DNA from: a virus
Strand: one strand, 5' to 3'
Length of the DNA stretch: 64,000 nt
Virus record (IMG/VR): IMGVR_UViG_3300021963_007958
A program made the position numbers and the translations under genes. The number at the start of each line of letters is the position of its first letter. The first letter of the stretch is position 1. Below, piece after piece: positions 282 through 41,414 of this stretch. The notes under the pieces were generated by a model. It saw only the letters and a list, made by a program, of their open reading frames with translations. It was not told the DNA's origin and searched no databases.

Positions 282-710
282 TCAATCTTTCTCGATAGAT
301 TTTAGCTGGATTGAAATCTCTTTAATCCAAGACTCATACTTCTGGGGGTAGAATTTCTTAAGGTCCGAAATCTCCCTTTTGGAAATTTCAAACCTTTTCA
401 AGATGAAAGCTTCTGCATCTTCATAGTCTGAAAAATCTATCTTTTTATCTTCCTTACCTTCTTTCTTCTTAGTCTTCGTAAAGATCCAAGAAGGGGACTT
501 TGAATAATAATTTGACATTGTCCCGTGCCACCAGTCGACCACGGGTGCGGGGGAAATCTTAGTATGGTTAAATTGATTGGCTTGAATTGGCCACTGGATA
601 GACATGATTCTGTTGATCATAAAGAAGTTTCGAACTTTGTCGTTCTTACCTACTTCCTCCCAGTCTTTCTTCTTTTTAAAGATTGTTTTTATGACGTCGA
701 ATAGTTCCAT
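282..710 (-). CDS. putative clamp loader small subunit (T4 gp62-like)
   Basis: MELFD...FMINRIMS...ANQFN resembles gp62 of T4-like phages; gp44 nearby. Confidence 0.6.
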   Translation of the reverse strand: MELFDVIKTIFKKKKDWEEVGKNDKVRNFFMINRIMSIQWPIQANQFNHTKISPAPVVDWWHGTMSNYYSKSPSWIFTKTKKKEGKEDKKIDFSDYEDAEAFILKRFEISKREISDLKKFYPQKYESWIKEISIQLKSIEKD

Positions 711-1846
711 TAAAAGTTAGCAAAAGGATCAAATGCCTTAGGAACCGATTGGGTTGTAGCCCATGAAGTTCCTTCTAATATCTTTACTCTGTCTATAGTG
801 ATACTCTTCCTAGGGATTTCAATTCCACGGGAAACTTCACCATCACAATTAGTGATTACAAACTCCGGCATTACACTTCTGTCGAGCCACATTAGAGTAT
901 AGTTTCTTAAAAGATTCTTTGTCACCTTCTCTCTGTTCTCTTTATTATCTACGTCTTTTAAAATTCTAAGAATAAATCCGGAAACCCAGGATAAGAAGTT
1001 TTGGTCTTGTAGCATGTCAATAAATCTAGAATCTTTCCATTCGGATTGATTAAGAGATTCAAGAATCTGTTCTGCTTTCTTGGGAGAAATCCCATTGAAC
1101 TTTCCATTGGGTGCTTGAACATACCAAACCCCGGGAACTGCATCACCTTTATCTCCAGTTAACATCTTATTGAAGACAAAGTCTCTTCTTCTTACTTCTT
1201 CTACGGTCACTTTCTTTAGGAACTCTTTAATCTTTTCCTTGTCCGGGGAAATTGCAGCTGTCATGTCGAAAATAGAAACAGATTCTGCCTTATTAACCCA
1301 GTTATCTTCCCATCCCGGAGGAACAGCTAAGATGTTATTCTTAGAATTATTGTTCCAGATGATAGTCCATCCTCTGTCATTGTGTCTAGCAAGCTGGTGC
1401 ATATCTTTATCACCGCTGATAATAATACAATTTTCACCAATCGAGTTGAAGTAGTCAGACCAATAGTAGAGAAGATCATCACCTTCTGCACCTTTTACTT
1501 TCGAAAATACAAATCCTTGATTCTCCAGTTGATGACCAAACTCTGTCATTAGATCAAAGAAGATTGTCCAGTCTACGGTTTCGTCTTTTACCCGGTTGGA
1601 CTTATATCCTCCGTCCTCGATTTCAACATCTTTTCTCCACGATCTGCTATCTGAGGTGAAGATCAATCTTCCACCTTGGGGAAGCAATTTGAGTCCAGCA
1701 CACAAGTCCGTAGCAACCTTACGGATGAACATTGCCTGTTCTCCGGGAGTACCGAGAACCTTAGAAGGGTCTTTTGCCCCGAATCCACCGAAGACTCCAA
1801 AGGTCTTATGGAAAATATAGTTTCCGTCTACAAGTATATTAATCAT
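710..1846 (-). CDS. rnh: 5'-3' exonuclease / T4 RNase H (FEN family)
   Basis: LVDGN, YKSNR, EGDD, ISGDKDMHQL, LTGDKGDAVPG motifs. Confidence 0.9.
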   Translation of the reverse strand: MINILVDGNYIFHKTFGVFGGFGAKDPSKVLGTPGEQAMFIRKVATDLCAGLKLLPQGGRLIFTSDSRSWRKDVEIEDGGYKSNRVKDETVDWTIFFDLMTEFGHQLENQGFVFSKVKGAEGDDLLYYWSDYFNSIGENCIIISGDKDMHQLARHNDRGWTIIWNNNSKNNILAVPPGWEDNWVNKAESVSIFDMTAAISPDKEKIKEFLKKVTVEEVRRRDFVFNKMLTGDKGDAVPGVWYVQAPNGKFNGISPKKAEQILESLNQSEWKDSRFIDMLQDQNFLSWVSGFILRILKDVDNKENREKVTKNLLRNYTLMWLDRSVMPEFVITNCDGEVSRGIEIPRKSITIDRVKILEGTSWATTQSVPKAFDPFANF

Positions 1847-4032: not shown

Positions 4033-5373
4033 TTAGAACATCTTAGACATATCATCTGCCTGAGTCTTATCATTTCGAATCTCGATGAAGCGGGGTAAGA
4101 ATAAGCTACGTCCCCCGAATTTATCTGTGATTGGTTCGTTGTATTGAATTGCTGCAATCTTACCAATTAGAGAATCTGCATCTTGACTGAGTTCATGAAG
4201 GTCTTTATCAGTGAATCCAGATCCAATTCTAACCTCCAGAGTTCCACTGGCATCTTTACAGATGAATCCTCCAATGAATCCTTCTCTCTTTCCTTCTCCG
4301 GGAAACCATCCGGTAATCTCCAGGTCGCAGTCTTGAATCTGCTTTAGCTTCACCCAATTTCTGCTCCTTTTACACTCATAGACGTGATCTGCTGGCTTTA
4401 AAATAACTCCTTCCCCTCCCATTGAAACAATCAGTCCGTAGATCTTTTGAGTTTCCTCAATAGAATCTACTACCCATTGACGTGCCAGTTTTACTTTGGA
4501 ATCCTCTTTGAGGAACCCAAGTAGAAACTCGAGTTCTTGTCTTCTCTTGAGGAAAGGAACGTTGCCTTTTCCTATTTTTAATGTCTCCGATTTTTCGATG
4601 TCAAACACATTAAAGAGGAAATCTTTATCTATATCATTTGAAGCGGTGCCTTTTAGGATCTGAGTTACCTTACCAGATACAGATTTTCTATTTAGATCCG
4701 TTAATTCCCCGTCAAAAAAGACCTCGCTAGTTGTGTTAGAGTTGTGTAAAGCCTGAATCAGCTCGGACTCGATTCTAGAAAGTTTAGACTTGTCTAACTC
4801 ATTAAAAGCTCTAGTATAAAACTGAAATCCTTTTTCTCTGTCTCCTACTGCTATTACACGAACTCCATCATACTTTTCCTCGCAGTAGATTTTATCCCAT
4901 CCGGCTACTTCCTTCCGGTCATCAGAAGCTAGCATTACCGACGGATCGGGAATTAATTCTCTCCCTACCGCCTTGTTGATGAGTTTAGCCCCAATTCCAA
5001 TGTTCATTCTCTTTGTCAGAATCTTCATTAGAATTACTCTAAGAGCCATATCCTCAGCTAGATCTTTTTCATGTATGACGGAATTAATAAGAGCATTAGC
5101 TCTAGATCTCAAAGAGTCATTTGCAGCAGGAGCTTTTTTAAGATCCTCCACTAGAGACTTAAAAGTTTCAAACCCTGGAAATTCAGGGACATCTAGATTT
5201 TGAGATAACTCTAGCTTATGAAGTTTAGTTGTAATGAATGGATTAAAGCAGACATCTAAGATGTAAAGCATTTCCTCCGATAAATTCTCGGAAATTAATC
5301 TCTGTTTTTCTTTCTGGGATCCGTTTCCTTCCATGGATTCAACGGACAATAGGACTCTGAGTTCTTGTTTCAT
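4033..5373 (-). CDS. gp30: ATP-dependent DNA ligase (T4 gp30-like)
   Basis: EEKYDGVR motif I, FDGEL, EGVILK, WVKLK, IGSGF, LFLPRF. Confidence 0.95.
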   Translation of the reverse strand: MKQELRVLLSVESMEGNGSQKEKQRLISENLSEEMLYILDVCFNPFITTKLHKLELSQNLDVPEFPGFETFKSLVEDLKKAPAANDSLRSRANALINSVIHEKDLAEDMALRVILMKILTKRMNIGIGAKLINKAVGRELIPDPSVMLASDDRKEVAGWDKIYCEEKYDGVRVIAVGDREKGFQFYTRAFNELDKSKLSRIESELIQALHNSNTTSEVFFDGELTDLNRKSVSGKVTQILKGTASNDIDKDFLFNVFDIEKSETLKIGKGNVPFLKRRQELEFLLGFLKEDSKVKLARQWVVDSIEETQKIYGLIVSMGGEGVILKPADHVYECKRSRNWVKLKQIQDCDLEITGWFPGEGKREGFIGGFICKDASGTLEVRIGSGFTDKDLHELSQDADSLIGKIAAIQYNEPITDKFGGRSLFLPRFIEIRNDKTQADDMSKMF

Positions 5374-5411: not shown

Positions 5412-7010
5412 TTATAGAGTGAATGATCCTCCCTCAGCTTCTCCCTCTTTTCCACCTTCTTTTTTAGCTTTTTCTGCTTCTTTTGCTTCGTCTTCTTTAT
5501 AGACTTTATTCTTATCAAATTCGTCTCTAGACAAAGGAAGGAATCTTCTAATCAAGAAATCCTTGTCGAAGTAAGGTTTTTCTTCCTCTCCAACTTTCAT
5601 CTTGATTTCTCCTAGTGAAGTAACAAAGTCGGTTGCTTTAGTTAGGTGAGCCAAATCTAAAAGCTTTGAGAATTGATTTTCGCTATAGTAATCTAAACCG
5701 AGATTCGCCTTGAAGCTTCTGTCTTTAGAAAGCTCGGGAAAGTCTAAACACATCTGAATATAAAGGGGTTTAACTACTATCTCCTGGAAAATAGATCTAA
5801 GTCTAGTTAAGAATTTTTCAAACCTAATTTCATCTCTTTCAAGCTGATCGATTGAGATTTGATAGTTAGCAGGAGTTGCTCCTCTACCTGCAAATCTCGC
5901 ATATGGGATTTTAGAATCTAGTTTTAGCTTGTTATAGAAATAAATTACATTTTCCATTACGTTAAAGTCCGGACCATTTGCGTTTAGAACATCAATTTGT
6001 GGGGACTGTCCATCTTTCTCAGGAAACAGATAATTCTTATAAAACTGTATCTTGGGTGTTCCGTTAACCAGAAGCTCACCCGATGTGTCGTTAATACTAA
6101 CCTCTTCCTTATAAGAAGACATTAACTGACCCAGAGTTTGCATTGCTTTCTGTTGAGATTGGGTTCCAACCGGAATGACAAATTTCAATCTATAAGAAGC
6201 ATTCATTACGTTCCAGATAACTCTGGTGTTCTCCATTACTCTTAAAATGTTGTAAGATCTGATAAGTCGTTCAACGTAGCTAACTCTAGAAATAGAATTT
6301 CCCTTAGCGTAAGAAATGTAGATGATCTGTTCAGACTTTAATTTTCTAGAAAGTTGAGAGTCTTTAGGATATTGAATCCAAATCTGTTCAAAGGATCCGT
6401 CGGGAGCTTTCTCCGTATGGGGTTGGAGTGAAGTTGGATCGAGTTCTTTAAACCCAACTATCTTTTTACCGTCTGTGGAATAAACAATTTCAAAAGCAAG
6501 AAATCCATCGATCAAGAACTGCTTAAAAAGCTGCCAAGCTAAGTTGTTCTGTTGGAATGCATAGAGCATGTAAATAGTTTTAAAGTTCTCGTGAACTTTA
6601 TCTATGATTTTATCCTTCAGATCTATGTTATTTAGAAGTGGCTGGCAGAAGAAGTTTTTATCGTCATAGTTAACTGCCTCGTCTGAGATGGTTTCTAGAA
6701 TGAAATCGATCTCTCCGTTCAGTGCAAACTTTCTTAAAAAGTCCCTTTTACCTAAATAGTCCTTATCGAAATAAGCAATATATTTTCTTATTCTTGTATC
6801 CTGGTATCCAAGAGTCCAATAAAAAGCACTATCGTTGGTGAACCCATTTCCCTCTTCTGAGAACATCTGAGATTCAGTTTGCCCAATAGTCTGAGAATTA
6901 CGAATGACCATGTCTTCGTATTGCATTCCAAATTTACCAATTCTACTCAGATTTTTGTAGAGCTGGGTAATGAATCTATTCTGTGGGTTTGAATCTAAAA
7001 ATCCTGCCAT
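5412..7010 (-). CDS. gp20: portal protein (T4 gp20-like), copy B
   Basis: SYVERLIRSYNILRVMENTRVIW, YFYNKLKLDSKIPYARF, RDEIRFEKFLTRLR gp20 motifs. Confidence 0.9.
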   Translation of the reverse strand: MAGFLDSNPQNRFITQLYKNLSRIGKFGMQYEDMVIRNSQTIGQTESQMFSEEGNGFTNDSAFYWTLGYQDTRIRKYIAYFDKDYLGKRDFLRKFALNGEIDFILETISDEAVNYDDKNFFCQPLLNNIDLKDKIIDKVHENFKTIYMLYAFQQNNLAWQLFKQFLIDGFLAFEIVYSTDGKKIVGFKELDPTSLQPHTEKAPDGSFEQIWIQYPKDSQLSRKLKSEQIIYISYAKGNSISRVSYVERLIRSYNILRVMENTRVIWNVMNASYRLKFVIPVGTQSQQKAMQTLGQLMSSYKEEVSINDTSGELLVNGTPKIQFYKNYLFPEKDGQSPQIDVLNANGPDFNVMENVIYFYNKLKLDSKIPYARFAGRGATPANYQISIDQLERDEIRFEKFLTRLRSIFQEIVVKPLYIQMCLDFPELSKDRSFKANLGLDYYSENQFSKLLDLAHLTKATDFVTSLGEIKMKVGEEEKPYFDKDFLIRRFLPLSRDEFDKNKVYKEDEAKEAEKAKKEGGKEGEAEGGSFTL

Positions 7011-7019
7011 TTATCTTTT

Positions 7020-8639
7020 TTATGCTGGTGGGGCTTCTGCTGCTGCCGGTGCTGCTGCCGGTGCTGCTGCCGGTGCTGCTGGGGTAGCTCCTGCTGCCGG
7101 TGCTGCTCCCTCTTTTTTCTTCTCCTCTGCTTTCTTTCTAGCTTCTGCGTTTGCTCTGATATCGTCGCTAGTAAGACCCAAATAATTTTCAACTAGGTAT
7201 GGAACTGAGAAGAATCCTCCACCCGTGTCGTCGGTTAGAGTCATCAATTTATCAACAGATTCCTTTTTCTTTAGGATAATCTCCATTTCCTGATTTCTCT
7301 TAAATGGGTTATCCGAGACGTAATCAAGACCAAGTTGACTTTTAAACATGTAATCTTTCTCCAGTTCCGGGAAATCTTTACACATTTGAATCCACAGAGG
7401 CTTAATTAAAATGTCCTGAAAAGCAGTTCTAAGTCTATTGATAAACTTAGCAAATCTAATTTCCTGTTTGTCTAAACCCTCCGCTGCATTTGCATACTTT
7501 CCCATCGATCCCCCATCTGGACCATTAAATCTAGAATTAGGAACTTTAGATTCGTTAATCAGTTTGTCAAAAAAGTATGCTAAGGGTGCAGGGTCATTAA
7601 GGTTCGGCCCTACATTATTTAGAGGTTCAATAGTGGGGGTTCCGTTCACACCGGAAGGCATTAAGTAGTTTTTAAAGAACTGAATCTTCGGTGCTCCATT
7701 TACAAATAATTCTCCACTTTGATCGTTTAGGGAGATATCTTCTTTATAGATACTCATCAACTCTCCTAACGTCTGCATTCCTTTTTGTTGAGATCTAGTT
7801 CCGATTGGAACTGTCATCTTCATTCTGAAAGAAGCATTCATTACAGACCAAATAACCCTTGTGTATTCTATAATTCTAAGGATGTTATAAGGTCTAATAA
7901 GTCTTTCGGTGTAGCTGACTCTCGAAACTGTATTCCCCTTTGCATAAGAAATGTAGATAATCTGGGAGTCATATAGCATTCTTTTTCTCCTTGGATCTTT
8001 GAAATATTGCCACCAAACGTTCAGATAGCTTCCGTCATTTTGTTTTTCGACAGAAGGCATCAAAGTCATAGCATCGATCTCTTTGAATCCGATGATGTTT
8101 TTTCCTTTGTCGTCGTAGATAATTTCAAATGCAACATATCCGTCTACCAGGAATTGTCTGAAATACTGCCAAGCACTAATGTCGTCAGTGAATCCAAACA
8201 TGTCATACAATTTCTTGTAATTTTCGTTGATCTTATCGATGACTTTTTCCTTCAGTCCAGTTAGATTTAAGAAAGCAGGATATGCAAAAAAGTTATGAGA
8301 ATCGTATGTGATTGACTCGTCATTAACTACATCCAGGATGAATTCAATCTCAGGGTTTAGTGAAAATTTTCTAAGATAATCCCTTTTACCTTTGTAGTCC
8401 TTGTCAAAATAAGAAACATACTGTCTCGACGTGGTATCTTGTCTAGCCAGAGCATAGAGCATCGTCTCGTCCTCAATCATTCCTTTTTTGAGGAATGCTG
8501 CTTCGGTTTGACCGATGGCTTGAGAATTTTTAACCACCATGTCTCCATAGTTTAACCCAAAGTTACTTAGATTCTTTACTGAATCTCTAATTCTTTGGAA
8601 GATAGGACTACCTTGTGGATTTTCTAAAAAACCTGCCAT
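7020..8639 (-). CDS. gp20: portal protein (T4 gp20-like), copy A
   Basis: PEIEFILD, SYTERLIRPYNILRIIE, SKVPNSRF, EIRFAKFINRLR; full-length paralog of adjacent gene. Confidence 0.9.
   Translation of the reverse strand: MAGFLENPQGSPIFQRIRDSVKNLSNFGLNYGDMVVKNSQAIGQTEAAFLKKGMIEDETMLYALARQDTTSRQYVSYFDKDYKGKRDYLRKFSLNPEIEFILDVVNDESITYDSHNFFAYPAFLNLTGLKEKVIDKINENYKKLYDMFGFTDDISAWQYFRQFLVDGYVAFEIIYDDKGKNIIGFKEIDAMTLMPSVEKQNDGSYLNVWWQYFKDPRRKRMLYDSQIIYISYAKGNTVSRVSYTERLIRPYNILRIIEYTRVIWSVMNASFRMKMTVPIGTRSQQKGMQTLGELMSIYKEDISLNDQSGELFVNGAPKIQFFKNYLMPSGVNGTPTIEPLNNVGPNLNDPAPLAYFFDKLINESKVPNSRFNGPDGGSMGKYANAAEGLDKQEIRFAKFINRLRTAFQDILIKPLWIQMCKDFPELEKDYMFKSQLGLDYVSDNPFKRNQEMEIILKKKESVDKLMTLTDDTGGGFFSVPYLVENYLGLTSDDIRANAEARKKAEEKKKEGAAPAAGATPAAPAAAPAAAPAAAEAPPA
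7039..7101. repeat. 12-bp tandem repeat GCTGCTGCCGGT x3 plus a separated partial copy (Ala/Pro tail of portal A)
   Basis: exact copies at 7039, 7051, 7063; further CTGCTGCCGGT at 7091. Confidence 0.9.
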
Positions 8640-9771: not shown

Positions 9772-10128
9772 TTAAACGTTGTATGAATTTTCTTCTCCTG
9801 TGATATGAGAAAAAGGAATGGTTTTAGGAGCTTTTGGGGGATGTATTTTCTTCCATCCTTTTGCAAATCCATTCTTAGCAATCTGTGTATAGTATGCAAA
9901 TGGATTATTTGATTTAGCAGGATCAAATCTGTTCCAGTATTTGCAGAGATCCTCCATAGCAAAAGCCATACAGTCCTCCTTGTCTTCTGGGTCTTTATAA
10001 GCCATCTTTTTAGAGATACCATTGATCATAAGATAAAACATTCTTATGGTTTCGGGAGTCAAAGCTCCCTTTTCTTTGGACTCTAAAATCGCCTTCATCA
10101 ATTCTGAGTTTTTAACGTAGTCTGCCAT
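9772..10128 (-). CDS. gp55: late transcription sigma factor (T4 gp55-like, compact)
   Basis: YVKNSEL, FDPAKSNNPFAYYTQIAKNGF gp55 signature. Confidence 0.88.
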   Translation of the reverse strand: MADYVKNSELMKAILESKEKGALTPETIRMFYLMINGISKKMAYKDPEDKEDCMAFAMEDLCKYWNRFDPAKSNNPFAYYTQIAKNGFAKGWKKIHPPKAPKTIPFSHITGEENSYNV

Positions 10129-10152
10129 CTTTAATATTTTAGTGTAAAAAAT

Positions 10153-10192
10153 AAATCCGCACTTAATGTATTATATCATTTAGTGCGGATTT
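10153..10192 (-). terminator. long inverted repeat (terminator-like on minus) overlapping the gp55 promoter
   Basis: AAATCCGCACT (10153-63) / AGTGCGGATTT (10182-92), followed on minus by ATTTTTT. Confidence 0.65.
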
Positions 10193-10212: not shown

Positions 10213-10851
10213 TTAGTCCATGTCGAACCAGCTCTTTTCTCCAGGCTCTGGAGCTTTTACTGCTGGTCTATAAGCTCTATCCGTTGTTCCGGTTAGAATT
10301 TTATTGATACTTCTATCGATCGCATCATAGTCAACTTGTTGAGATCCAGAAGGTTCTTTAACTACTTTTCTCATTAATTGATTATTAGCTCCAAGAAGTC
10401 TTGTTTTAATTAGCGTTCTAAGATTACCGTAAATCTGACCGTCCGTTAGGTTTGGTTTATCTACACTCTTGTGCCAGTCTTGAAGAACATCTTTTAGAGT
10501 TGTAGCAATTACTTCATCAAACTGCTCGTCGCTCAAATTGGACCATCTTCTTCTGAACTCGCCATAAGCTACAGAATTGATTAACTCGACAAGCATTTTA
10601 GCGAGTTTGTGGGTTACTGTTCTAACAGGTCTGCGGGGATTGCCTAGAACTTTAATATAAACTGTTTCCCCTTCTGCAAGAGATTTCTTAACCTCATCTG
10701 CAAGTTCTTTCTGGTCAATAAACTTTTTAGCCTCGAGAATAACCCCTTCAAAGTAGTTATCCGGCTGAACATCAATGAAGATATTTTCTCCTAAGTATAG
10801 AGGTTTAGATTCTACTAAGAAATTTTCAAAATTTGATAAGTTTTTCATCAT
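10213..10851 (-). CDS. divergent gp55-like protein with N-terminal capsid-targeting-like propeptide
   Basis: manual alignment to adjacent gp55; N-terminus MKNLSNFENFLVES. Confidence 0.55.
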   Translation of the reverse strand: MMKNLSNFENFLVESKPLYLGENIFIDVQPDNYFEGVILEAKKFIDQKELADEVKKSLAEGETVYIKVLGNPRRPVRTVTHKLAKMLVELINSVAYGEFRRRWSNLSDEQFDEVIATTLKDVLQDWHKSVDKPNLTDGQIYGNLRTLIKTRLLGANNQLMRKVVKEPSGSQQVDYDAIDRSINKILTGTTDRAYRPAVKAPEPGEKSWFDMD

Positions 10852-10862
10852 TTAGTTCAGAA

Positions 10863-11198
10863 TTATTTCTTAATTGCTTTTTTAGCTTGTTTTCTAGCTT
10901 CATCTCCAATTTTATTTAGGAACTTCACATAGTCAACTGACTTAGTTTTTGTCAATGGATAATCTCCAATAAGATCGGATTTAATTCCAGAATCTTTTAC
11001 AGTGATTGAAGATTTTATTCCATCAATGTCTCTAGAAAGGGTTTCTCCACTCTCTTTATATCCATATGCCTTGGTAGCCATGTCGATGAAGTTCTTTTTG
11101 AATAAAGGATTAACAGCTGCTTTTCCTGCAGGTCCTTTTCCAAAAGCTTCGAATAATTCAGATTCGTTAATTTCTGAGTAAGATTTTAAATTTTTCAT
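10863..11198 (-). CDS. putative internal virion protein
   Basis: MKNLKSYSEINES targeting-like start; late motif at 11206-11213. Confidence 0.55.
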   Translation of the reverse strand: MKNLKSYSEINESELFEAFGKGPAGKAAVNPLFKKNFIDMATKAYGYKESGETLSRDIDGIKSSITVKDSGIKSDLIGDYPLTKTKSVDYVKFLNKIGDEARKQAKKAIKK

Positions 11199-11217
11199 AG
11201 TTATCTATATATCAATT

Positions 11218-11412
11218 TTATTCTTTGTCTTCTCCCTCTTCGTCTTCACGAGAAATGAGTGTATCTTCAGATTTTTTCGGTTTCCCGTCTGGAGCTACAC
11301 TCATTTTTCCTTCAGAACTTTCAATATCAGGTTGGGATTTTTTTCCTTCTGCTTCCTCATTTTCGGGAGCAAAAGCCCAAACTTTGCTAAGAGCTGACTT
11401 TAATTTTTTTTT
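11218..11412 (-). other. start-less -1 frame extension (64 codons) of the 989-aa protein behind an A9 run
   Basis: KKKLKSALSKVWAFAPENEE...MSVAPDGKP...EDKE*; continues the xxAP repeat pattern. Confidence 0.6.
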
Positions 11413-14369
11413 AATTCTGGACTAGGTCTGTCAAATCCTTCATTTACGAAAATCGATTGAAGCATTTTTTGTACCTCTTCAGAATCTTTATTCTCCATGA
11501 TGAAGTTCTTAATTCCATCTAGAGTTAATTCGGTTGGAGATGAATTTTCTCCTTCTCCAATATTGTAACCCATTTCAGCGTTAAGCTCATAATCAACTTC
11601 TCCGTCTGCACCTTTTGAAGGTGTTTCTGCTAAGTCTGCAGTATCCAAATTGTCAATATCTGCATTATTAGAAGCTTTAGCATCCAAATATTCAACTTCA
11701 TATCCTGCGTCTCCTTCTACTTTCCCTGGGGAAGTAGCGAAGTTTGGATCTGTTGTGTCTTTAGAAGGAACCTTAGAACCTTTTTCTGGAGCTGTTACTA
11801 GCTCTGCAGTATCAAGATTGTCGATCTCTGGACTGCTAGCTTTAGGAAGGTCGATCTTAATTGCATATCCTGAGTCTCCGACTTGTGCGCCTGGTGCAGT
11901 AGCAAGAGCTGGATCTAATTTAGAAAGATCCGACTCGTCCATTTTAGATTTTCCCGATCCCGGAGCAACCGCCATGTTGGAATTTCCAGTGATCTCAGGC
12001 TTCTTAGAAGCTTTAGGATCTGGATATTCAACTTTATAATCTGCATCTCCCTCTTCTTTACCGGGGGTAGAAGCTAAATTCATAGCCTTTAGTCCAGACT
12101 TTTCCCATTCTGTAGCCATGTTAGTTCCTTTAGGTTTTCCTTGAGGAGCAGTAGCTAGTGAAGGTTGGTTAGATTCTTCTAGATTATACCCGTTTTCGTC
12201 GTTTACTTCGTAGTCGGTAGGCTTATTTTTGCTTTCTGGTGCTTCTTCTAGATTTGCATCTTTAAGATTTTCAACGTCTTTCTTTCCGTCTTGGTCTTGA
12301 GTCTTAGCAGATGGAGCTGCAGAAGTGCTAGCTTTTAACACTTGAGCTGGAGTTTTACCGTGAACTAATTTACCAGTAGATGGGGCTTTTGCTAAAGGAG
12401 TGCTAGACTCTTTTACACCTTCGCCTTCTTCTGCGTTCTCGTCTGAAGATTTTTGGAATGCATCTTCAAGATCAACGATATCTTCTACTCCAAAATCACC
12501 GGTCTTTCCACTATCCAAAAGAACAGTGTAAGAACCTGATGTAGTATCTACTGAAATAATCTTTCCAGTATTTCCGTTTTCTTTAACTTTAACGTAATCC
12601 CCAACTGTGAATTTAGAATCTTCCATTAGATCTTCAATCACGGTAGGATTATTTTCAATAGAATCTAATTCTGCATTGATAGTAGACCATTTAGACTTAA
12701 GAGTCTGAAGTTCTTTTTCAAGAATAGAATAAGCTTGTGAAAGCTGGTTAGATCCTTTGAATAGAGGATTTGAAGCCACTAGGGTTTCGATCTTCTTCAT
12801 TTCACCTTCTACGATAGCAATGTTATCTATAACTTTCTTTCTATCGTTAATCATGATGGACTTAATCTTTCTCTCGCCATCCAAGAATTCAGTTAAACCT
12901 TCTGAAACGTCGTATTTCAAGAAGTCTTTAACGATGTTAGCTGCTTGAGATCCGTTAACTGCAAATAGAGAATTTTCTCTCATTGCTTCGTTAACCTTCT
13001 GAAGATACATCTTTCCGTCCCACTTAATCAAACTAACAGAAGCACCTTCGTAAACCTTAGAAACGATAGACTTAGCAAAGTCTAGATCTACAATTTTATC
13101 AAAGTTTTCGTAAAGTCTAATTGTATCAGAGATGAGTTTATTTTCGTTGGTTGCAAGTCCTCTTGAAACCTTCAAAGTGATAAGCTTTGCAAGCTGGTTG
13201 TAATCACCAAATTTAGCAAGATCATCATTTAGGTAGATTCTAGTTTCTTCGTTTTCTTCAACAATAGAAATTCTAGTGTCTCCAGCATAAATGGAAATTC
13301 CATTCTCGTTAACTTTAACACCTTCTGTGTAGAAAGTCTCAAGGAGACCCAAGAATTCTTTGTCCATATTAGCAACATCTCTATTAGAAAGTTTTCTAAC
13401 TCCTTCAGAGCTACCTTCAAATAAAGTTTTACCGATTGCAAAAATAGTTTTATTGTTTTCAACTAGTACAGGAGAATAAATTTTTCTGATTTCAGAATTT
13501 CCGTTGATAGTAGGAATATTCATTTTAGAATCATTTGTCTCAAGAAGAGTTAAATTATTAATAAGGTTCTTAACAACTGGGTTGAAAGACCAAACTCTAA
13601 GTTCTTTTGAAAGGGCAGGAATAGATTTGGATTCAGAAACTAACCATTTAGAGATTGATTCTTTAACAGGAGTATAGAAGTCAGAGCTTCCTGTGTTCTC
13701 GATTTGATACAAAGCTTTAGAAACTTCGATTTCTGGTCTAAGAGTATTGCAAGACTCAGCAACTCTATTTACTGCAGCTTTAACGCTGCTGTCCCACGAG
13801 AAGTTAGAGAAGTCAGAGATGAAATTCTCAGCAACCCAATACTCAGGAACGTTTTTGTTCTTTAGAATATTAACGTAGTTCTCGCAAAGAATTTTAAAAT
13901 TACCATGCTCGTAGATACCTCTCTTAGAAAGTTCTAGGATAGATTCTAGAATCCCTAAGTTTTCAACTTTGTTGGAATCAACAAATGAAGCAGCAGACTT
14001 GTCGAACTTCGCCATTCCCTCAAGAGCTTCGTTTAATTTATTTTGAATCTCGCTAGATGGCTTTTGCTCTTCTTCTGCCCCGTCTACATAAGAACCAGAG
14101 TTCTTAGAAGGATTGAAGGAATTAAGTCCTCCCCAAGATTCAGCAAGCATTTTAGCTCTAGATTTAGATCTCTCTAGCTCTTCATTTCTTAGAGCTTCGA
14201 TTGGAGAGATTGTGTTCTCTTCTCTAGATTCTATGGCTTCCACAACCTGAGATTCAGTAATAGAAGTGTTTCCCTTCTTCAGTTCAGTGATGTAGGTTTC
14301 ACACAAATCTTTAACTTCTCTGGATTGAGTAGTTTCTTTTAGATTTTGTAGTTTGTTTATTAAATCCAT
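11400..14369 (-). CDS. large acidic putative prohead core/internal head protein with KOW/SH3-like domain and LxxAP repeats
   Basis: many (I/L/V)-x-E-(S/A/G) sites; FTVGDYVKV..TGKII motif; two late motifs upstream; near portal genes. Confidence 0.55.
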   Translation of the reverse strand: MDLINKLQNLKETTQSREVKDLCETYITELKKGNTSITESQVVEAIESREENTISPIEALRNEELERSKSRAKMLAESWGGLNSFNPSKNSGSYVDGAEEEQKPSSEIQNKLNEALEGMAKFDKSAASFVDSNKVENLGILESILELSKRGIYEHGNFKILCENYVNILKNKNVPEYWVAENFISDFSNFSWDSSVKAAVNRVAESCNTLRPEIEVSKALYQIENTGSSDFYTPVKESISKWLVSESKSIPALSKELRVWSFNPVVKNLINNLTLLETNDSKMNIPTINGNSEIRKIYSPVLVENNKTIFAIGKTLFEGSSEGVRKLSNRDVANMDKEFLGLLETFYTEGVKVNENGISIYAGDTRISIVEENEETRIYLNDDLAKFGDYNQLAKLITLKVSRGLATNENKLISDTIRLYENFDKIVDLDFAKSIVSKVYEGASVSLIKWDGKMYLQKVNEAMRENSLFAVNGSQAANIVKDFLKYDVSEGLTEFLDGERKIKSIMINDRKKVIDNIAIVEGEMKKIETLVASNPLFKGSNQLSQAYSILEKELQTLKSKWSTINAELDSIENNPTVIEDLMEDSKFTVGDYVKVKENGNTGKIISVDTTSGSYTVLLDSGKTGDFGVEDIVDLEDAFQKSSDENAEEGEGVKESSTPLAKAPSTGKLVHGKTPAQVLKASTSAAPSAKTQDQDGKKDVENLKDANLEEAPESKNKPTDYEVNDENGYNLEESNQPSLATAPQGKPKGTNMATEWEKSGLKAMNLASTPGKEEGDADYKVEYPDPKASKKPEITGNSNMAVAPGSGKSKMDESDLSKLDPALATAPGAQVGDSGYAIKIDLPKASSPEIDNLDTAELVTAPEKGSKVPSKDTTDPNFATSPGKVEGDAGYEVEYLDAKASNNADIDNLDTADLAETPSKGADGEVDYELNAEMGYNIGEGENSSPTELTLDGIKNFIMENKDSEEVQKMLQSIFVNEGFDRPSPELKKN

Positions 14370-17514: not shown

Positions 17515-18318
17515 TTATACATCAAAGATATCAGAATCTTCTCTGTTGTGCTGAAGATAAACTCTTAAGGGTTCTCTCAAATCTTTAATCGGGTGAATTT
17601 TAGCTGGACCTTCTGGTCCAATGTGACACAAAAAACCTCCGTGAGATTCTATTCCGATTTCTTCCTCGAGCATCAGTCTATATAAACTAACCTGGATAGA
17701 ATATTCATTTAAATGATTCTCCCAAAGGTGAGAGAATGGATGGAGTAATTTTTTATATCTTCCCTTCGGATGTTCGTCAGATCTAAACTCTTTGTTAGTC
17801 TTCCAGTCTCCTATCAGAAAAAGAACCATTTTCTGTTTTTCGTCCCACATTAGGAAAGGCTGATCTATAGTTCCAGCGAGCTTCCATTTTCTGCAGAATA
17901 TTTTAAGCTCTGAAGATAAGGGAACTAGATTCTTAAATCTTTTTTCATAGAGATCCATAAATTTTCCAATTCTCTCTACAAAAGCGGGTTCGTCATCTTC
18001 GGTTAGTTCTCTGACATTACCTGACCAAAAATCCTCTATCCATTTATGAACTCTTGTTCCAAGATCATTAGCAACATCTGCCTTTCCCTGCCATTCATCT
18101 AAAACTACAGAAACATCAACTCCTCTTTCTGCTGCTTTCTTTTTAGACCAGTATTCCTTATCGAATGGAGTTTTAAATCTCTTAATGTAGGAAGTTACCG
18201 AATCATACTTTATGTCCCTATAGTGGTAAGTGTGAGCTTCTTCTTCAAAGATAAAGTTTGGATCTTTAAAGACAGAAAGCTTTTTAATTAGATCTTTTCT
18301 AATCGGCTTTAAGTCCAT
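17515..18318 (-). CDS. PD-(D/E)XK exonuclease (Cas4/RecB-like fold)
   Basis: SVTS, GTRVH, LAGTID, IGDWKT, YSIQVSLY. Confidence 0.85.
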   Translation of the reverse strand: MDLKPIRKDLIKKLSVFKDPNFIFEEEAHTYHYRDIKYDSVTSYIKRFKTPFDKEYWSKKKAAERGVDVSVVLDEWQGKADVANDLGTRVHKWIEDFWSGNVRELTEDDEPAFVERIGKFMDLYEKRFKNLVPLSSELKIFCRKWKLAGTIDQPFLMWDEKQKMVLFLIGDWKTNKEFRSDEHPKGRYKKLLHPFSHLWENHLNEYSIQVSLYRLMLEEEIGIESHGGFLCHIGPEGPAKIHPIKDLREPLRVYLQHNREDSDIFDV

Positions 18319-18798: not shown

Positions 18799-19410
18799 TT
18801 ACTTGTTTTCCTCCATCTTTAGACGAATTTTATTTCTAGCTCGTCTGATTCTAGTGGCAATAGATCTTTTTTTGATGCCATATTTTTCCGCTATGTCTTT
18901 ATATTTCATCCCATTAATTTCTCTATCTATCATAATGTCCCGGTAGAGAGAAGGGAGGGACCTAATTTCTTCAATTGCTGTTTCGTACATATCATCTATA
19001 GACTCTCCTTCGCTAGCAAAGCTCCAGAGGGGATCTTCGTCTATATTATATGAAGGATTCTTCTCCTCGTTCTTAGAGGAAGAATAGTCTAGGTCTTCTA
19101 TAGAAAGATGGACATATTTCTTTCTAGTCTTTAGAAGAAGAAGAGATTCATTTCTAGCAATATTATAACACCACGTAGAAAAATTTCCTCTAGAACTATC
19201 ATATTGATCTATCTTTTGCCAGACTTTGGCCATTGCATTCAAGAATGCATCCTCTGCTAACTCCGGGTCTTTTAGAATCCCATAGCAATGATTTAATACC
19301 CCGGGTTTAACTCTTTCATAAAGTGATTTAAAACTTCTTTCATCCCTAGTCTCAATAAAATTGTTTGCAAGTACTTGGATGTTCTTTTCTTTCTTAATTT
19401 CTTTTTGCAT
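18799..19410 (-). CDS. ECF-type RNA polymerase sigma-70 factor
   Basis: AEDAF..VWQKIDQYD..FSTWCYNIARN (region 2); MKYKDIAE...IATRIRRAR (region 4 HTH). Confidence 0.9.
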   Translation of the reverse strand: MQKEIKKEKNIQVLANNFIETRDERSFKSLYERVKPGVLNHCYGILKDPELAEDAFLNAMAKVWQKIDQYDSSRGNFSTWCYNIARNESLLLLKTRKKYVHLSIEDLDYSSSKNEEKNPSYNIDEDPLWSFASEGESIDDMYETAIEEIRSLPSLYRDIMIDREINGMKYKDIAEKYGIKKRSIATRIRRARNKIRLKMEENK

Positions 19411-22786: not shown

Positions 22787-23281
22787 CTAAGCGTTAATGT
22801 TAGAAATTGCAGCTTTAGATCTTTTTACAGAATCTCTTTTTGCTGATTCTATTGGATTACACCAAATAAGTCTATCTTGATCCTCCGTAGCCTTTAGATC
22901 ATCATATAAAGGTTTTACAGCCTTTAATAGTGCTTCTGAGAAATTATTCATCTTTTTATTCTGATCAGCATTTCCTTGGTACATGCTTAAGGTTGTATTC
23001 CCGAAACGTTCTTTGGCTTTATCCGGGGTTGGAAACTCCATAGAAGTAGGGAAAAAATCTTTCCCCGCTAATTTTAGGGCCCAAGCAATCAAATATCTAT
23101 TATTAAAAGAGGTGTCGCCAAAAACTTTTTTAATATTATCAAAAGTGAGACTGGTCTGTTGTTCATCTTTTGTATTTTTTCTAAGCTCCTCGATGGCAGC
23201 CTGTGCTCTTTTTGGATCCCATTCTTGTACTCCCTCGTTTAGAGCCTGAACAAATGAATCGAAATATGATAAATTTTTCAT
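22787..23281 (-). CDS. putative internal virion protein
   Basis: MKNLSYFDSFVQALNEG targeting-like start. Confidence 0.55.
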   Translation of the reverse strand: MKNLSYFDSFVQALNEGVQEWDPKRAQAAIEELRKNTKDEQQTSLTFDNIKKVFGDTSFNNRYLIAWALKLAGKDFFPTSMEFPTPDKAKERFGNTTLSMYQGNADQNKKMNNFSEALLKAVKPLYDDLKATEDQDRLIWCNPIESAKRDSVKRSKAAISNINA

Positions 23282-23283
23282 TT

Positions 23284-23862
23284 TTAGATGAATTGATCTT
23301 GCCAGTAGTCTGCCTTCCAGCTAGTAGCTAATGTGTATAGAGTTTCTCCTGCATCATAGTTTAGATCCATTGGATTCAAATCTGCAGTCAGGAAGCAGTT
23401 ATTTAGGCTGATTCTTCTAAATACATCTCCCTGTTTATTGAAGATCGAAACCACGATAGATCCAACATAGTCTTTTTTTAGACCCATTGCACCAGTTAGT
23501 GGGTTATAAATCAAATCCGCCCATTGTCTCATGATTTTATAAACAATCATGGAATTCTGTTCATTCAAGTTAACCTCGAAATCTATGCTAAATGCAACAG
23601 AAGTATCTGAAGGAGCACCTCCTGCATATCTTCTTTCTGCAAACTTATAAAACTGACTAGCAGCTCCTGCAGGTTGAATATCAACCGCAAGACCTGATAT
23701 CTTCTTCACCTGCTGGGTTAGAATACCTTCTCCTCTGAATCTAGTATTAGCTAAAGTAACACTAGCGGGAGGGGTAATCAAAACCTCAAACTGGTTGAGA
23801 TAAACTGGTTCGTACAGTTTTACTCCGGCTGCCGAGTTGGTAAAATGTGGTAATCCTGCCAT
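23284..23862 (-). CDS. gp19: tail tube protein (gp19-like), copy 2
   Basis: EPVYLNQFEV, RQWADLIYNPLTG, next to sheath. Confidence 0.85.
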   Translation of the reverse strand: MAGLPHFTNSAAGVKLYEPVYLNQFEVLITPPASVTLANTRFRGEGILTQQVKKISGLAVDIQPAGAASQFYKFAERRYAGGAPSDTSVAFSIDFEVNLNEQNSMIVYKIMRQWADLIYNPLTGAMGLKKDYVGSIVVSIFNKQGDVFRRISLNNCFLTADLNPMDLNYDAGETLYTLATSWKADYWQDQFI

Positions 23863-23876
23863 TTATTTTAATTTTT

Positions 23877-24428
23877 TTATGAGAATTGGTCGTCCCAGTA
23901 ATCTACTGCCCACTGTAAGCTAATGTCATATAGTTCAGTTCCTCCATAGTCTAGTTCCATCGCACCGATAGGGGCGATAGGGAAGCAGTCTCTGCAGGTA
24001 ATTCTTCTAAATACATCTCCTTGTTTGTTAAAGACAGAAATAACAATAGTTCCGGTATAATCTCTCTTTAGACCCATCGCACCTGTGAGAGGGTTGTAAA
24101 TAAGGTCTGTCCATTGTCTCAAAGTCTTGAACACGTACATGGAGTTTGCATCGTTCAAGTTGACGGTAAAGTTAACCGTTAGATCAAAAACTGTGCTATC
24201 GGGTTTTGCACCTGCATAGTTTCTAACCGCAAACTTATATTTCTGCTGTGTTGCAGCAGGAGTTTTATCCACGCCCAAACCTGAAATGCTTGTCACCTGT
24301 TCAACCAGAATTGGTCCTCCCAGGACTGCTGCCGGGGGCGTAATAAGAACTTCAAACTGGTTGAGATAAACGGGTTCGTATTTGTTTATCCCAAACAGTG
24401 AATTCTGATAGTGTGGTAATCCAGCCAT
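23877..24428 (-). CDS. gp19: tail tube protein (gp19-like), copy 1
   Basis: paralog of 23284..23862; directly downstream of sheath. Confidence 0.85.
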   Translation of the reverse strand: MAGLPHYQNSLFGINKYEPVYLNQFEVLITPPAAVLGGPILVEQVTSISGLGVDKTPAATQQKYKFAVRNYAGAKPDSTVFDLTVNFTVNLNDANSMYVFKTLRQWTDLIYNPLTGAMGLKRDYTGTIVISVFNKQGDVFRRITCRDCFPIAPIGAMELDYGGTELYDISLQWAVDYWDDQFS

Positions 24429-29773: not shown

Positions 29774-30556
29774 TTAATTAAAAAGATCATCATCAACCTC
29801 GAGAGTGTTCTCGTCGTTGATCTCGATGTCATTTCTGGTGATTGCTAGCTCCTCTTTCCTCCTAGCATTTACTATAGAGTTCTCGTTGCTCTCGTCTATC
29901 TGAATGTCTTCTATCTCAGTTCCAAGAATATCCCTAAGTCCTTCCATCAGTCCCTTTGTTCCTCTAACCTTTAGTCCTTCGCTCTGTCCTAGACTAGGGG
30001 TGGACCCTAATGTTGATGTTTTATTTGCAGGATCATATTCCATTTGAACCCCTCCTGCATATGCTTTTCTTTCCCCCTCTCCTCTTAGTCTAACATAACT
30101 TTCTTCCATCTTGGTGAGATAGTTCTGATAGTCTTTAGGCATCTGCATAATTTGAGATTGGAGCTGAGCAAGAACCTCGAACATTCTTGGGTTTGCATTC
30201 CCGAGATCTATCTCTTCGAGAAGCTTTGTAATAGCGTGCTGGGCCGTCTTTAGCTGGAGCATCATAGAAGAGACATTCATCGCATCTATTTTCTGCTTAT
30301 ACGCGATGTAATCGGACTTCTCAATGTAGTTTTCTTTCAAATAGAAGTCCACGATAGACTCCATCAGTTTTCTAGCATCGTTTCCGACATCGGATTTTGC
30401 AGTTGCAAAGTCCATCATGTCAGTGGTTTTTAATCTGGGAAGATCGGAAGGCTGAAGGGTATCCGAATCTAAACCTTCGTCCATCAGAATTTGATCCAAG
30501 GTGGACTTGATGTTCTCCTGGACAATCTTCTCTGGTTTTGGTTTTCTTCTTGGCAT
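29774..30556 (-). CDS. putative terminase small subunit
   Basis: position upstream of TerL; helical core with PRMFEVLAQL resembling gp16 PRxxEV. Confidence 0.6.
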   Translation of the reverse strand: MPRRKPKPEKIVQENIKSTLDQILMDEGLDSDTLQPSDLPRLKTTDMMDFATAKSDVGNDARKLMESIVDFYLKENYIEKSDYIAYKQKIDAMNVSSMMLQLKTAQHAITKLLEEIDLGNANPRMFEVLAQLQSQIMQMPKDYQNYLTKMEESYVRLRGEGERKAYAGGVQMEYDPANKTSTLGSTPSLGQSEGLKVRGTKGLMEGLRDILGTEIEDIQIDESNENSIVNARRKEELAITRNDIEINDENTLEVDDDLFN

Positions 30557-33192: not shown

Positions 33193-33582
33193 CTACACCA
33201 CAGAGGTGTGGTTCCTTCCATCGTTCCAGTAACTCTCATCTCCGTACCAAATGAAGATTTCCTCCCCGGCAATAATGTCTCTATTTGCGATAAATTTGAA
33301 AGTTCTTCTGTCAAGATCAGAAACCCAATATGCATTTGCAGGGTCTGAATGATTATATAAAGAACCATATCCCCAAGAAATAACCTGCTCCTCCCACTCT
33401 GTTCCCTGTGGCCAATTAAATCTATAGTCGATTAAAAGAGAGGAAGATTCACCCTTCTGAATCGGGAGGGGAAGCACAGGACACTCCTCAAAGACTTCCC
33501 CTTCTTTTATGTTCTCTTTAGCAAAAACCCCCCAGCCATGGATTGGACTTCTATCAATAAATATTTTAAAGTTGTGGATCAT
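33193..33582 (-). CDS. SET-domain protein-lysine methyltransferase
   Basis: SPIHGWGVFA, YNHS..AN, RDI.AGEEI...YG. Confidence 0.92.
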   Translation of the reverse strand: MIHNFKIFIDRSPIHGWGVFAKENIKEGEVFEECPVLPLPIQKGESSSLLIDYRFNWPQGTEWEEQVISWGYGSLYNHSDPANAYWVSDLDRRTFKFIANRDIIAGEEIFIWYGDESYWNDGRNHTSVV

Positions 33583-34379
33583 AGATTAAAATAGTCTTTT
33601 AGTCCTTCTTCCAAAGACCATCGGGAAGTCCAACCGGACATCCATTTCTTTGGATTGCTACAGGTATAAAATTGGTATCCCTGAGGGATTACGGACTGGT
33701 CTAGATATCCATACGGAATCCCCATAATCTCCATTACGTCTTCAAAGGGTCTTGCCACCCCAGACCCAACTTCATAATATCTTCCCTCTAGAAGACTATA
33801 GTTCTCCATGGCATGAATATTGGAAGAGACTATATCTTTCACATAAACGAAGTCTCTTCTAGGGTTCTTCGGAAATAAATTTATATTCTTTCCTTCAGAG
33901 TGTAATACGGACATCTGATAAGCAACCGATGCCATCTTGCCTTTATTTTCTTCACCCGGGCCATAAACATTAAAATATCTAAGTGCAATTCCTCCATTGG
34001 AGATCACATAGTCTTCTGCTGCATATTTACTCCATCCATATAAATTAGAGGGATATTCATCATTTATTCCGTAATTAGCAGCTGACGAAGAGTATACCAG
34101 GGGGACTTTCTCAGAAGAACAGAGATTTGAGAGGTGCTTGGTGAACTCGTAGTTGACCAACATCATGTAGTTAACGTCGGTTTCTAGAGTATTGGAACAC
34201 GCACCGACGTGGAAGACTGCGGAAATATCTAGCCAAAAGTGCTTAGAGACTTCGTCCCTCCAATTAACAGTTTGGAAAATATCCTCGTTAATTTCTATGA
34301 TATCATACTTGGAATCTAGCTCTCTTTTAAGATTAGACCCAATGAATCCTTTAGTTCCGGTTATTATTATTTTTTTCAT
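33579..34379 (-). CDS. hldD: ADP-L-glycero-D-manno-heptose 6-epimerase-like NAD-dependent epimerase
   Basis: ITGTKGFIGSNL, FHVGACS.T, YSSSAA.YG, YGWSK, LRYFNVYGP.E..KG.MASV, RDFVYV, YQFYT. Confidence 0.8.
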   Translation of the reverse strand: MKKIIITGTKGFIGSNLKRELDSKYDIIEINEDIFQTVNWRDEVSKHFWLDISAVFHVGACSNTLETDVNYMMLVNYEFTKHLSNLCSSEKVPLVYSSSAANYGINDEYPSNLYGWSKYAAEDYVISNGGIALRYFNVYGPGEENKGKMASVAYQMSVLHSEGKNINLFPKNPRRDFVYVKDIVSSNIHAMENYSLLEGRYYEVGSGVARPFEDVMEIMGIPYGYLDQSVIPQGYQFYTCSNPKKWMSGWTSRWSLEEGLKDYFNL

Positions 34380-34390
34380 TTCATTTCATT

Positions 34391-35221
34391 TTATTTATGT
34401 GCAATACAGATTCCATTTTCTCTAAAACTAATAAACCCTTTAGAGATTACAAAATTATTTATTTCTTCTCTTTTCTCCGTTGACAAATTATTATATTCAA
34501 AGACAATTAAATCCAAATGAGAATATTGATCATCAGAGAGACTATACAGAAGTTTATCGTCTATACCTTCAACGTCTAGATGGACCCACTTTGTATCCTG
34601 CGTGATTAGATCAGAGAATTTAATAGAGCTTCTTAGTGTGGAGGTTATCTCTTCAGTTTCCCACGACTCAATTACTGTTTTTTCTACGGAATTGGTATAA
34701 CCCTTTCCTCCTTCATAGAAAATAGTGTCTTCTCCATTATCCGTTACCAATTCATTAACAAAAGTTAAATTATCATAACTGGCATAGTTTTGGGAAAGCT
34801 CAGTAAATTGTTTTTCGCTAGCTTCTACTAGAGTAATATGGGCTAATTTATCTAGAGCTACAGGAACCCATTCACCAAATTCACCGCTATGTGTTCCTAC
34901 AACAACACCCTTTGAATTTGGGTTTATCTTACAATAATTCCACAGTTTTTGATACGGAAAGGTTCCGTTAGTAACAACATTCCATCGGTGGGTAAAAAGG
35001 TGGATCCCACAATTGTCTTTAACAATCACATCAATCATCTCAGTATCGGGAAATGTTGCCCAGCTATTGGAATTTAATCTCGTATCCCATATTTTCTTTC
35101 CATTAACTTGCCTCACAAAATCAAAGTGTAGGGGTAGTTGTTCACTGCTAAAAATCCCATTTAGATTATGGGTTTCTATTCTGATGCTGTCCGTACTATA
35201 ATTTATCTTAAACATTTTCAA
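34391..35221 (-). CDS. FkbM-like SAM methyltransferase with N-terminal beta domain
   Basis: VVGTHSG, LVEAS, LDVEG.D, FEY. Confidence 0.65.
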   Translation of the reverse strand: MKMFKINYSTDSIRIETHNLNGIFSSEQLPLHFDFVRQVNGKKIWDTRLNSNSWATFPDTEMIDVIVKDNCGIHLFTHRWNVVTNGTFPYQKLWNYCKINPNSKGVVVGTHSGEFGEWVPVALDKLAHITLVEASEKQFTELSQNYASYDNLTFVNELVTDNGEDTIFYEGGKGYTNSVEKTVIESWETEEITSTLRSSIKFSDLITQDTKWVHLDVEGIDDKLLYSLSDDQYSHLDLIVFEYNNLSTEKREEINNFVISKGFISFRENGICIAHK

Positions 35222-39185: not shown

Positions 39186-39187
39186 GA

Positions 39188-41402: not shown

Positions 41403-41414
41403 ATATCTTTAATA

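Follow-up and report, generated by a model that had tools for sequence, protein, structure and literature searches.

Known systems and the position of gene X

In bacteriophage T4, the sliding clamp serves as a tether for gp55 and gp33. For early transcription, phages are known to use the host sigma factor, an injected complete RNA polymerase, as in N4, phiKZ and crAss-like phages, or an injected enzyme modifying the host polymerase, such as Alt of T4. The gene considered here, designated X, lies on the minus strand of a viral sequence of 64,000 nucleotides (IMG/VR record IMGVR_UViG_3300021963_007958; hereafter the window), and its predicted product appears to combine a gp55-like core, similar to region 2 of sigma factors, with an N-terminal leader resembling those that target T4 proteins to the capsid. 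The reading preferred here, by which the gp55-like protein X is loaded into the capsid and acts on the host polymerase, is tentative and is held with slightly more doubt than belief. A first-pass annotation of this DNA had proposed a packaged gp55 paralog serving as an injected sigma factor or a polymerase decoy. This interpretation is supported in part: the paralogy with gp55, the propeptide-like leader, the late-type unit and, by alignment, the changes in the pocket stand, and the delivery and action of the protein are treated below as a conditional model. The genes compared are the following:

10213..10851, minus strand: X, probable gp55-like sigma region-2 paralog with a putative N-terminal propeptide (212 amino acids (aa), including a probable extra first Met)
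9772..10128, minus strand: gp55 ortholog, the paralog with which X is compared (118 aa, directly downstream of X)
10863..11198, minus strand: ORF111, a small basic protein (isoelectric point (pI) 9.5) with the leader MKNLKSYSEINESELFE/A, probably co-transcribed with X

The translation of X opens with MMKNLSNFENFLVES. Since most X orthologs start with MKN, translation probably begins at the second ATG.

The gp55 protein of T4 carries a C-terminal sliding-clamp-binding motif after a variable linker (PMC2988020, PMC7892883). It has in common with X a helical core like sigma region 2, in which the fourth helix is unusually long. By alignment, X also keeps an aromatic residue close to its N-terminus, an amide (Q47) for N13, a basic residue (R102) for R57 and an acidic one (E113) for E70, and in both proteins a flexible linker leads to a conserved hydrophobic and acidic C-terminus. 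Unlike T4 gp55, X has a putative propeptide of 40 residues and a beta-hairpin, and its tail contains SWFDM, not LDFLY. X also has a late-type promoter, whereas T4 gp55 is expressed before late transcription.

The capsid-targeting sequence (CTS) of T4 is MKTYQEFIAE (PMC8442874), and the T4 prohead protease gp21 cleaves after L/I-x-E (PMC9026906), as the first-pass annotation had also stated. The ten-residue CTS of IPIII is enough for encapsidation (PMC9026906), and the CTS is the only feature common to the diverse internal proteins of T-even phages (PMC3012670). IPI, IPII, IPIII and Alt of T4 resemble X in bearing a short leader on unrelated proteins, with the motif aromatic-x-x-aromatic-(L/I)-x-E followed by a small residue; the internal proteins are also similar to X in belonging to late genes, in having a basic mature product and in the presence of a gp21-family protease in the lineage. 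Alt provides the nearest functional precedent, being a packaged, processed protein acting on the host RNA polymerase (PMC9026906, PMC3012670, PMC8442874). The cargo here, however, is a sigma-like domain and not an anti-restriction protein or an ADP-ribosyltransferase, and its putative propeptide of 40 residues, which holds two possible sites of cleavage, is longer than those of the T4 internal proteins.

The virion RNA polymerases of N4-like, phiKZ-like and crAss-like phages are the nearest precedent in concept, since transcription machinery travels in the particle and enters with the DNA, which lets early genes be read at once (PMC7598289, PMC13434306). Those phages carry whole polymerases, but X would be a specificity-subunit-like protein using the host core, and it has no homology with them. 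Long forms of X, found in sister phages and described below, resemble two-domain sigma factors of the extracytoplasmic function (ECF) type in having a region-2-like core and a helix-turn-helix (HTH) at the position of region 4. Unlike ECF-type sigmas, X of the window has no HTH, and the HTH of the long forms matches other domains no worse than region 4. A literature search, incomplete in its coverage, revealed no report of a virion-packaged sigma factor.

Relationship of X with gp55

The neighbour of X is, judging by its sequence, an orthodox gp55 ortholog: it matches phrog_234 (E 2e-15) and PF04542 (E 4.8e-5), and its family profile aligns with T4 gp55 (7d7c_F) at E 4.4e-8, over T4 residues 9-114 only. 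It possesses neither the fifth helix nor the T4-type LDFL clamp-binding motif and ends in ...TIPFSHITGEENSYNV.

A BLASTP comparison of X with this gp55 gave no alignment at E ≤ 100, so the kinship of the two proteins is visible only at the level of profile and fold. The hhalign comparison of the X family with the gp55 family yielded a probability of 79.5-82.3% (E 1e-5 to 1.5e-5) over 65-73 columns, matching residues 43-128 of X with residues 3-67 of gp55 and leaving a 16-residue insertion in X. The reversed control reached a probability of 0.1%, and 40 column-shuffled controls reached at most 1.7%, with a score of 19 against 38.7 for the real pair. The alignment that the first-pass annotation had made by eye was reproduced by hhalign in the same register as its blocks, and its pairing of IYGNLRTLIK with PFAYYTQIAK was recovered in a greedy profile alignment. 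Residue W126 of X is paired with W65, nearly invariant in the gp55 family, and E113 with D52, which is invariant there. A search of PDB sequences with the hidden Markov model (HMM) of the X family found only a ribosomal protein (E 2.2).

The AlphaFold model of X, in which the core has a predicted local distance difference test (pLDDT) score of mostly 79-96, was structurally aligned with VIA-align to 48,161 PDB representatives. The best match was T4 gp55 (7d7d_F; Z 8.6, root-mean-square deviation (rmsd) 2.5 Å, 98 residues), standing 1.5 Z above the next row, and the next ranks were mostly occupied by domain 2 of sigma factors, namely sigmaA, sigma32, sigmaS, sigma28 and ECF sigmas (Z 5-7). An independent model of a long-form relative that is 24% identical (P0047) also placed T4 gp55 on top (Z 8.7, rmsd 3.2 Å, 114 residues), 2.4 Z units over the next row. 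Foldseek with the X model returned 7d7c_F as the top PDB entry, and its BFVD matches include proteins annotated as phage sigma or gp55. A structural match to sigma domain 2 or gp55, foreseen in the first-pass annotation, was found in this way, with T4 gp55 as the best hit for two models. The ESM Atlas contributed one cluster with PF04542 in half of its members, which serves as a lead only. It is very probable that X and gp55 are homologous.

The N-terminal leader and the prohead protease

The N-terminal part of X consists of two segments:

10810..10851, minus strand: leader, residues 1-14 (MMKNLSNFENFLVE), with the capsid-targeting-like motif FxxFLxE
10732..10809, minus strand: putative acidic propeptide spacer, residues 15-40, ending in ILE40 followed by Ala41, with an invariant h-x-E

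Residues 1-14 of X (MKNLSNFENFLVE) show the succession aromatic-x-x-aromatic-L-x-E. The greedy profile alignment places E40 of X opposite Met1 of gp55, and residues 1-40 are therefore an addition. This corresponds to the leader of about 40 aa that had been described as ending in VILE-A, residues 37-41, at the start of the gp55 homology. The sequence-level test found (L/I)-x-E sites at LVE14/S and ILE40/A. E40 is invariant in 21 and 15 aligned homologs (two alignments), and almost all homologs have L, I or V as the P3 residue of its site; the surroundings of E40 are variable and have low confidence in both structure models. The leader is kept in every X ortholog and also in homologs that are 22-27% identical overall. 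Cutting off residues 1-40 shifts the pI of X from 6.2 to 9.2, as the putative propeptide is acidic and the remainder is basic.

The leader was formulated as the pattern M-[KR]-x-[LIV]-x-x-[FYI]-x-x-[FI], with [LI]-x-E-[ASGT] within a few residues. It matched the N-termini of 6 of the 64 open reading frames (ORFs) in the window versus none of 18,480 internal positions, and among 2000 shuffles of the N-terminal regions three gave a single match. Besides X, the matches are five mutually unrelated ORFs starting at 10863 (ORF111), 22787, 57047, 58220 and 60387, and all six lie within units headed by GATATATA, a late-promoter-like motif described below. Apart from X and ORF111, the leader-bearing ORFs are:

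57047-58201, minus strand: ORF with the leader motif
58220-60337, minus strand: ORF with the leader motif
60387-62027, minus strand: ORF with the leader motif
22787-23281, minus strand: ORF with the leader motif

One of the leader-bearing proteins, 705 aa long, contains a peptidoglycan-binding domain (PF01471, 31.8 bits) and has weak endolysin-like matches, being a candidate ejected virion protein acting on the cell wall.

A putative prohead protease was found in relatives of the phage:

L024:1444-3375, plus strand: Peptidase_S77-scaffold fusion of a related IMG/VR contig, where the X ortholog is 86% identical

The Peptidase_S77 match, located in a frame of 692 aa, exceeds the curated cut-off (33.7 bits, E 5.6e-10). 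In a 185-kb contig, the same protease gene is listed about 17 kb downstream of the X ortholog. The protease frame continues into 14 tandem repeats with a period of 14 residues, each containing Y-x-x-Y-[LVI]-x-E (e.g., YSEYLAE). The pattern [FYW]xx[FYW][LIV]xE occurs twice in the 19,952 residues of the window, one occurrence being FENFLVE of X, and 14 times in the scaffold repeats of L024; YQEFIAE of T4 fits it too. In T4, protease and scaffold are encoded separately, whereas in L024 they are fused. Since the X leader, the T4 CTS and the scaffold repeats match one pattern, the leader may be viewed as a single scaffold repeat, which suggests a cargo-sorting rule for T4-type proheads.

At the sequence level X has the features of a T4-type CTS protein, and its leader looks like a T4-type capsid-targeting propeptide, as the first-pass annotation had supposed: five unrelated late ORFs share the leader, E40 is invariant, and the scaffold repeats of the related contig match.

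A late-type transcription unit

The unit containing ORF111 and X is delimited by two elements:

11206..11213, minus strand: GATATATA, late-promoter-like motif heading the ORF111 to X unit, 15 nucleotides (nt) before the ATG of ORF111
10143..10192, minus strand: intrinsic terminator, hairpin and T-run, between X and gp55 (free energy -24.5 kcal/mol, z -6.3)

The motif GATATATA is present in the window in 12 copies versus 2.97 expected. Eleven of them are on the coding (minus) strand, 15-81 nt ahead of gene starts, and the genes preceded by the motif include those of the portal, the sheath and the 989-aa protein, two leader-bearing genes and ORF111. The late operon proposed from the copy at 11206 is supported, the motif being enriched and shared with the portal and sheath genes. 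The terminator stem is invariant across 8 orthologous loci. It seems that X ends a late-type unit insulated from gp55, since GATATATA heads the unit and a conserved terminator follows X. On the basis of the promoter motif, X is probably expressed late, together with the head genes. The loop of the terminator has a conserved ATATA core, which in the window lies inside TGATATAAT; it could serve gp55 as a promoter-like element lying within the hairpin.

ORF111 has no family match and no PDB match. It may be a gp33-like coactivator, a possibility for which the PDB sequence search found no match and the ESM Atlas nothing usable.

Core, C-terminus and long forms of X

The part of X following the putative propeptide is composed as follows:

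10357..10731, minus strand: gp55-like sigma region-2 core, residues 41-165, with predicted helices at 47-60, 81-99, 108-130 and 137-164
10618..10671, minus strand: inserted beta-hairpin separating helices 1 and 2, residues 61-78, with strands 63-68 and 71-77 in the model
10243..10356, minus strand: linker, residues 166-203, with a short helix at 177-187 (pLDDT 40-63, mostly low-confidence)
10216..10242, minus strand: conserved hydrophobic/acidic C-terminal tail GEKSWFDMD, residues 204-212

The beta-hairpin is absent from gp55, where hhalign leaves a gap of 16 residues. Within the tail, G204, E205, K206, S207, W208 and D210 are each at least 90% conserved. The functional residues of T4 gp55 were taken from published work (PMC7892883, PMC2988020), and X was mapped to them by its alignment to gp55 of the window and through that to T4 gp55. 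By this alignment, residues F44, Q47, V94 and R102 of X are identical to, or conservative replacements of, T4 Y10, N13, L54 and R57, and the position of T4 H95 is occupied by the aromatic Y141.

In sister phages, the positional orthologs of X are 267-270 aa long and possess an additional C-terminal three-helix HTH; the first-pass annotation had noted neither these relatives nor the conserved tail of the short form. The HTH of the long forms begins at the same point, and the tail of X aligns with GSGTFDNL at the start of the HTH domain. This domain resembles transposase, homeodomain and Myb-type domains (Z 5-5.8). The Pfam models of region 4 gave no match to it, and neither PF04542 nor a sigma PHROG matched the long forms at E ≤ 10. 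According to the models, the layout of the long forms appears to be that of a two-domain sigma factor.

Possible role of X and alternative explanations

From the comparisons above we infer the following course, including packaging and cleavage of X, its ejection, its binding to RNA polymerase and the direction in which it acts. The gp55 gene would have been duplicated, and the fast-evolving copy would have gained the acidic N-terminal propeptide of 40 residues. X would be made late, and its leader would dock it onto the prohead scaffolding core, co-assembling as one more repeat of the scaffold. A prohead protease of the gp21 family would then cut X after E14 and/or E40, and the mature protein (residues 41-212, basic, gp55-sized, pI 9.2), beginning where gp55 begins, would remain in the head with the DNA and be ejected along with it into the next host cell. 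There it would most likely engage the clamp helices of the host RNA polymerase core, and either steer the earliest phage transcription to promoters outside the late GATATATA class or keep the core from the host sigma factor. Binding to the host RNA polymerase and to DNA is favoured because the sigma core is retained and the long forms have an HTH. On arrival X may act as a new specificity factor, as a decoy or as an internal protein with a role outside transcription. The most specific version, in which X is a virion-loaded sigma-like specificity subunit that reprogrammes the host core from the start of infection, without a phage polymerase, is doubtful. If it is true, X would be the first virion-delivered sigma factor and a minimal equivalent of the N4 and phiKZ virion RNA polymerases; injection of a sigma-like subunit would add a fourth, far less costly route of early takeover, and the T4 capsid-targeting system would prove able to recruit transcription factors as cargo.

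A number of observations weigh against a packaged protein with sigma activity. Neither PF04542 nor a sigma PHROG matched X in the Pfam and PHROGs searches at E ≤ 1; fold and profile comparisons assign X to the gp55 family, and the curated sequence models fail to do so. Z scores of 8-9 are merely moderate for helical proteins. The (L/I)-x-E site at residue 14 is missing in some X orthologs, the leader-bearing ORF at 22787-23281 lies within the tail gene cluster, and the protease gene was found in relatives only and not within the window. By alignment, the residues reading the promoter are changed, with S129, N143 and R145 of X in place of T4 F86, Y97 and T99, of which Y97 in T4 gp55 stacks on the base at -12. 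The replacement of the aromatic pocket residues of gp55, noted already in the first-pass annotation, is supported by the alignment, the helix-4 part of which has low confidence. Among the acidic residues binding the clamp helices, one of three is kept by alignment, E113 at T4 E70, with T117 at D74 and K120 at E77, and D121 is adjacent; the register may be off by one. Because of these changes in the promoter pocket and in the clamp-helix-binding residues, the sigma activity of X may have been lost. With the pocket residues replaced, X is unlikely to read the promoter that gp55 reads; it may read another promoter, or none.

It is improbable that X is an unpackaged cytoplasmic late transcription factor, a second subunit of the gp55 type beside the 118-aa gp55, with a C-terminal tail that possibly tethers it to another factor, in the manner of T4 gp55 and gp33 on the sliding clamp, and a regulatory or autoinhibitory N-terminal segment. 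The succession of core, disordered linker and conserved hydrophobic/acidic C-terminus does mirror T4 gp55; moreover, gp55 of the phage has no fifth helix and no LDFL, the model of the long form aligns to gp55 up to residue 153, this helix included, and the HTH of the long forms is what a complete promoter-binding sigma factor would have. However, a leader common to five unrelated late proteins and matching a scaffold repeat is not expected of a private regulatory segment, the SWFDM tail differs from the T4 motif LDFL[YLF], and X itself has a late-type promoter and is separated from gp55 by a terminator. A sliding-clamp gene (PF02916) was sought in five related fragments, and none was found. 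It also seems improbable that X is packaged and processed with its sigma fold reused and without action on RNA polymerase, its role then being DNA condensation or protection, countering of host defence, or coupling of the prohead to the terminase. In its favour, the promoter-pocket residues of gp55 are replaced according to the alignment, as are two of its three core-binding residues, and it agrees with the basic character of mature X, similar to that of the T4 internal proteins, and with fast evolution, likewise known for internal proteins of T-even phages (PMC3012670); T4 gp55 itself reportedly binds the terminase gp17 (PMC9026906). Nevertheless, the region-2 core is strongly conserved within the X family, including W126 and E113, and the long forms keep a DNA-binding HTH where sigma factors carry region 4.

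The last explanation, by which X is a structural protein without kinship to gp55, such as a baseplate hub component, and the likeness of the two is a chance effect of helical bundles, is very unlikely. Its basis is a pair of weak matches, to PF12322 (T4_baseplate, E 0.014) and to phrog_150 (baseplate hub, E 0.043), each over about 50 residues, along with the fact that a Z below 13 can reflect an arrangement common among helical proteins. Both baseplate matches are far under the thresholds, and the baseplate identity was rejected because the fold and profile comparisons of X indicate sigma region 2. Furthermore, the profile-profile match withstands the reversed and shuffled controls, gp55 tops the rankings for two models built from sequences with 24% identity, 1.5 and 2.4 Z over the next, and gp55 is the adjoining gene of X in every locus.

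Genomic context and distribution

The order of genes on the minus strand is the 989-aa protein (11400-14369), ORF111, X, gp55 and a gp4-like head completion protein, beyond which genes of a gp2-like protein, two T4-type portal paralogs, DNA ligase and a clamp loader are located. This order is likewise retained in related metagenomic contigs, and X adjoins gp55 at every locus compared. At an identity of 56% or more, the family of X numbers 45 proteins. Only five clusters were assigned to it when 1.8 billion representatives were searched exhaustively with an HMM, which indicates a very narrow family, and a tblastn search with X against 50,697 cultured phage records produced no credible match. 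Divergence is more rapid in X than in gp55 and the portals (55-92% versus 88-97%), as would fit an accessory host-directed cargo.

The nearest relatives of the large terminase belong to huge uncultured phages, Sphingomonas phage PAU, and Tenacibaculum and Flavobacterium jumbo phages. The gene content, these terminase neighbours and the CheckV completeness of 15% for a 47-kb relative indicate a giant, distantly T4-like phage. Its host is probably a member of Bacteroidota, as judged from gene starts without Shine-Dalgarno sequences. The phage, an uncultured one of fresh water, occurs widely in lakes, rivers and estuaries. Metatranscriptome contigs overlap parts of X, one piece of 151 nt being identical; such contigs from RNA libraries are uninformative on transcription, ends and strand.

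Other features of the window

The features below lie outside the X unit:

5412-7010, minus strand: full-length T4-type portal (gp20), one of two tandem paralogs (PF07230, phrog_213)
7020-8639, minus strand: full-length T4-type portal (gp20), the other of the tandem paralogs (PF07230, phrog_213)
18799-19410, minus strand: third sigma-type gene, a two-domain sigma of 203 aa (PF04542 E 2.5e-14, PF08281 E 4e-11)
11400-14369, minus strand: 989-aa late protein with an SH3-like segment (weak PF20297 match) and no family match
23284-23862, minus strand: tail tube paralog opening with MAGLPH (the tandem pair matches phrog_32623 and phrog_3629)
23877-24428, minus strand: tail tube paralog, the other of the pair, also opening with MAGLPH
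710-1846, minus strand: ORF with the short hydrophobic/acidic tail AFDPFANF
17515-18318, minus strand: ORF with the tail SDIFDV
29774-30556, minus strand: ORF with the tail DDDLFN
4033-5373, minus strand: ORF with the tail DDMSKMF
33579-44449, minus strand: extended series of genes for sugar modification (epimerase and glycosyltransferase-like ORFs), placed between the structural and replication modules

The portal pair is kept in all related contigs, and at its N-terminus the upstream copy carries KNLSNF (residues 22-27), which is identical with six residues of the X leader. The presence of the two-domain sigma besides gp55 and X suggests that transcription is programmed in several stages. 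The ORFs with short hydrophobic/acidic tails encode several replication and repair proteins and one unknown protein; these tails may be sliding-clamp-binding motifs, and SWFDM of X is of the same general type. The C-terminal half of the 989-aa protein is rich in short repeats of the types LATAPxxK and DxGYxVEYxDxKAS. The tail tube pair directly follows the gene of the 1122-aa sheath, and the leader-bearing ORF of 164 aa comes after the two tail tube genes.

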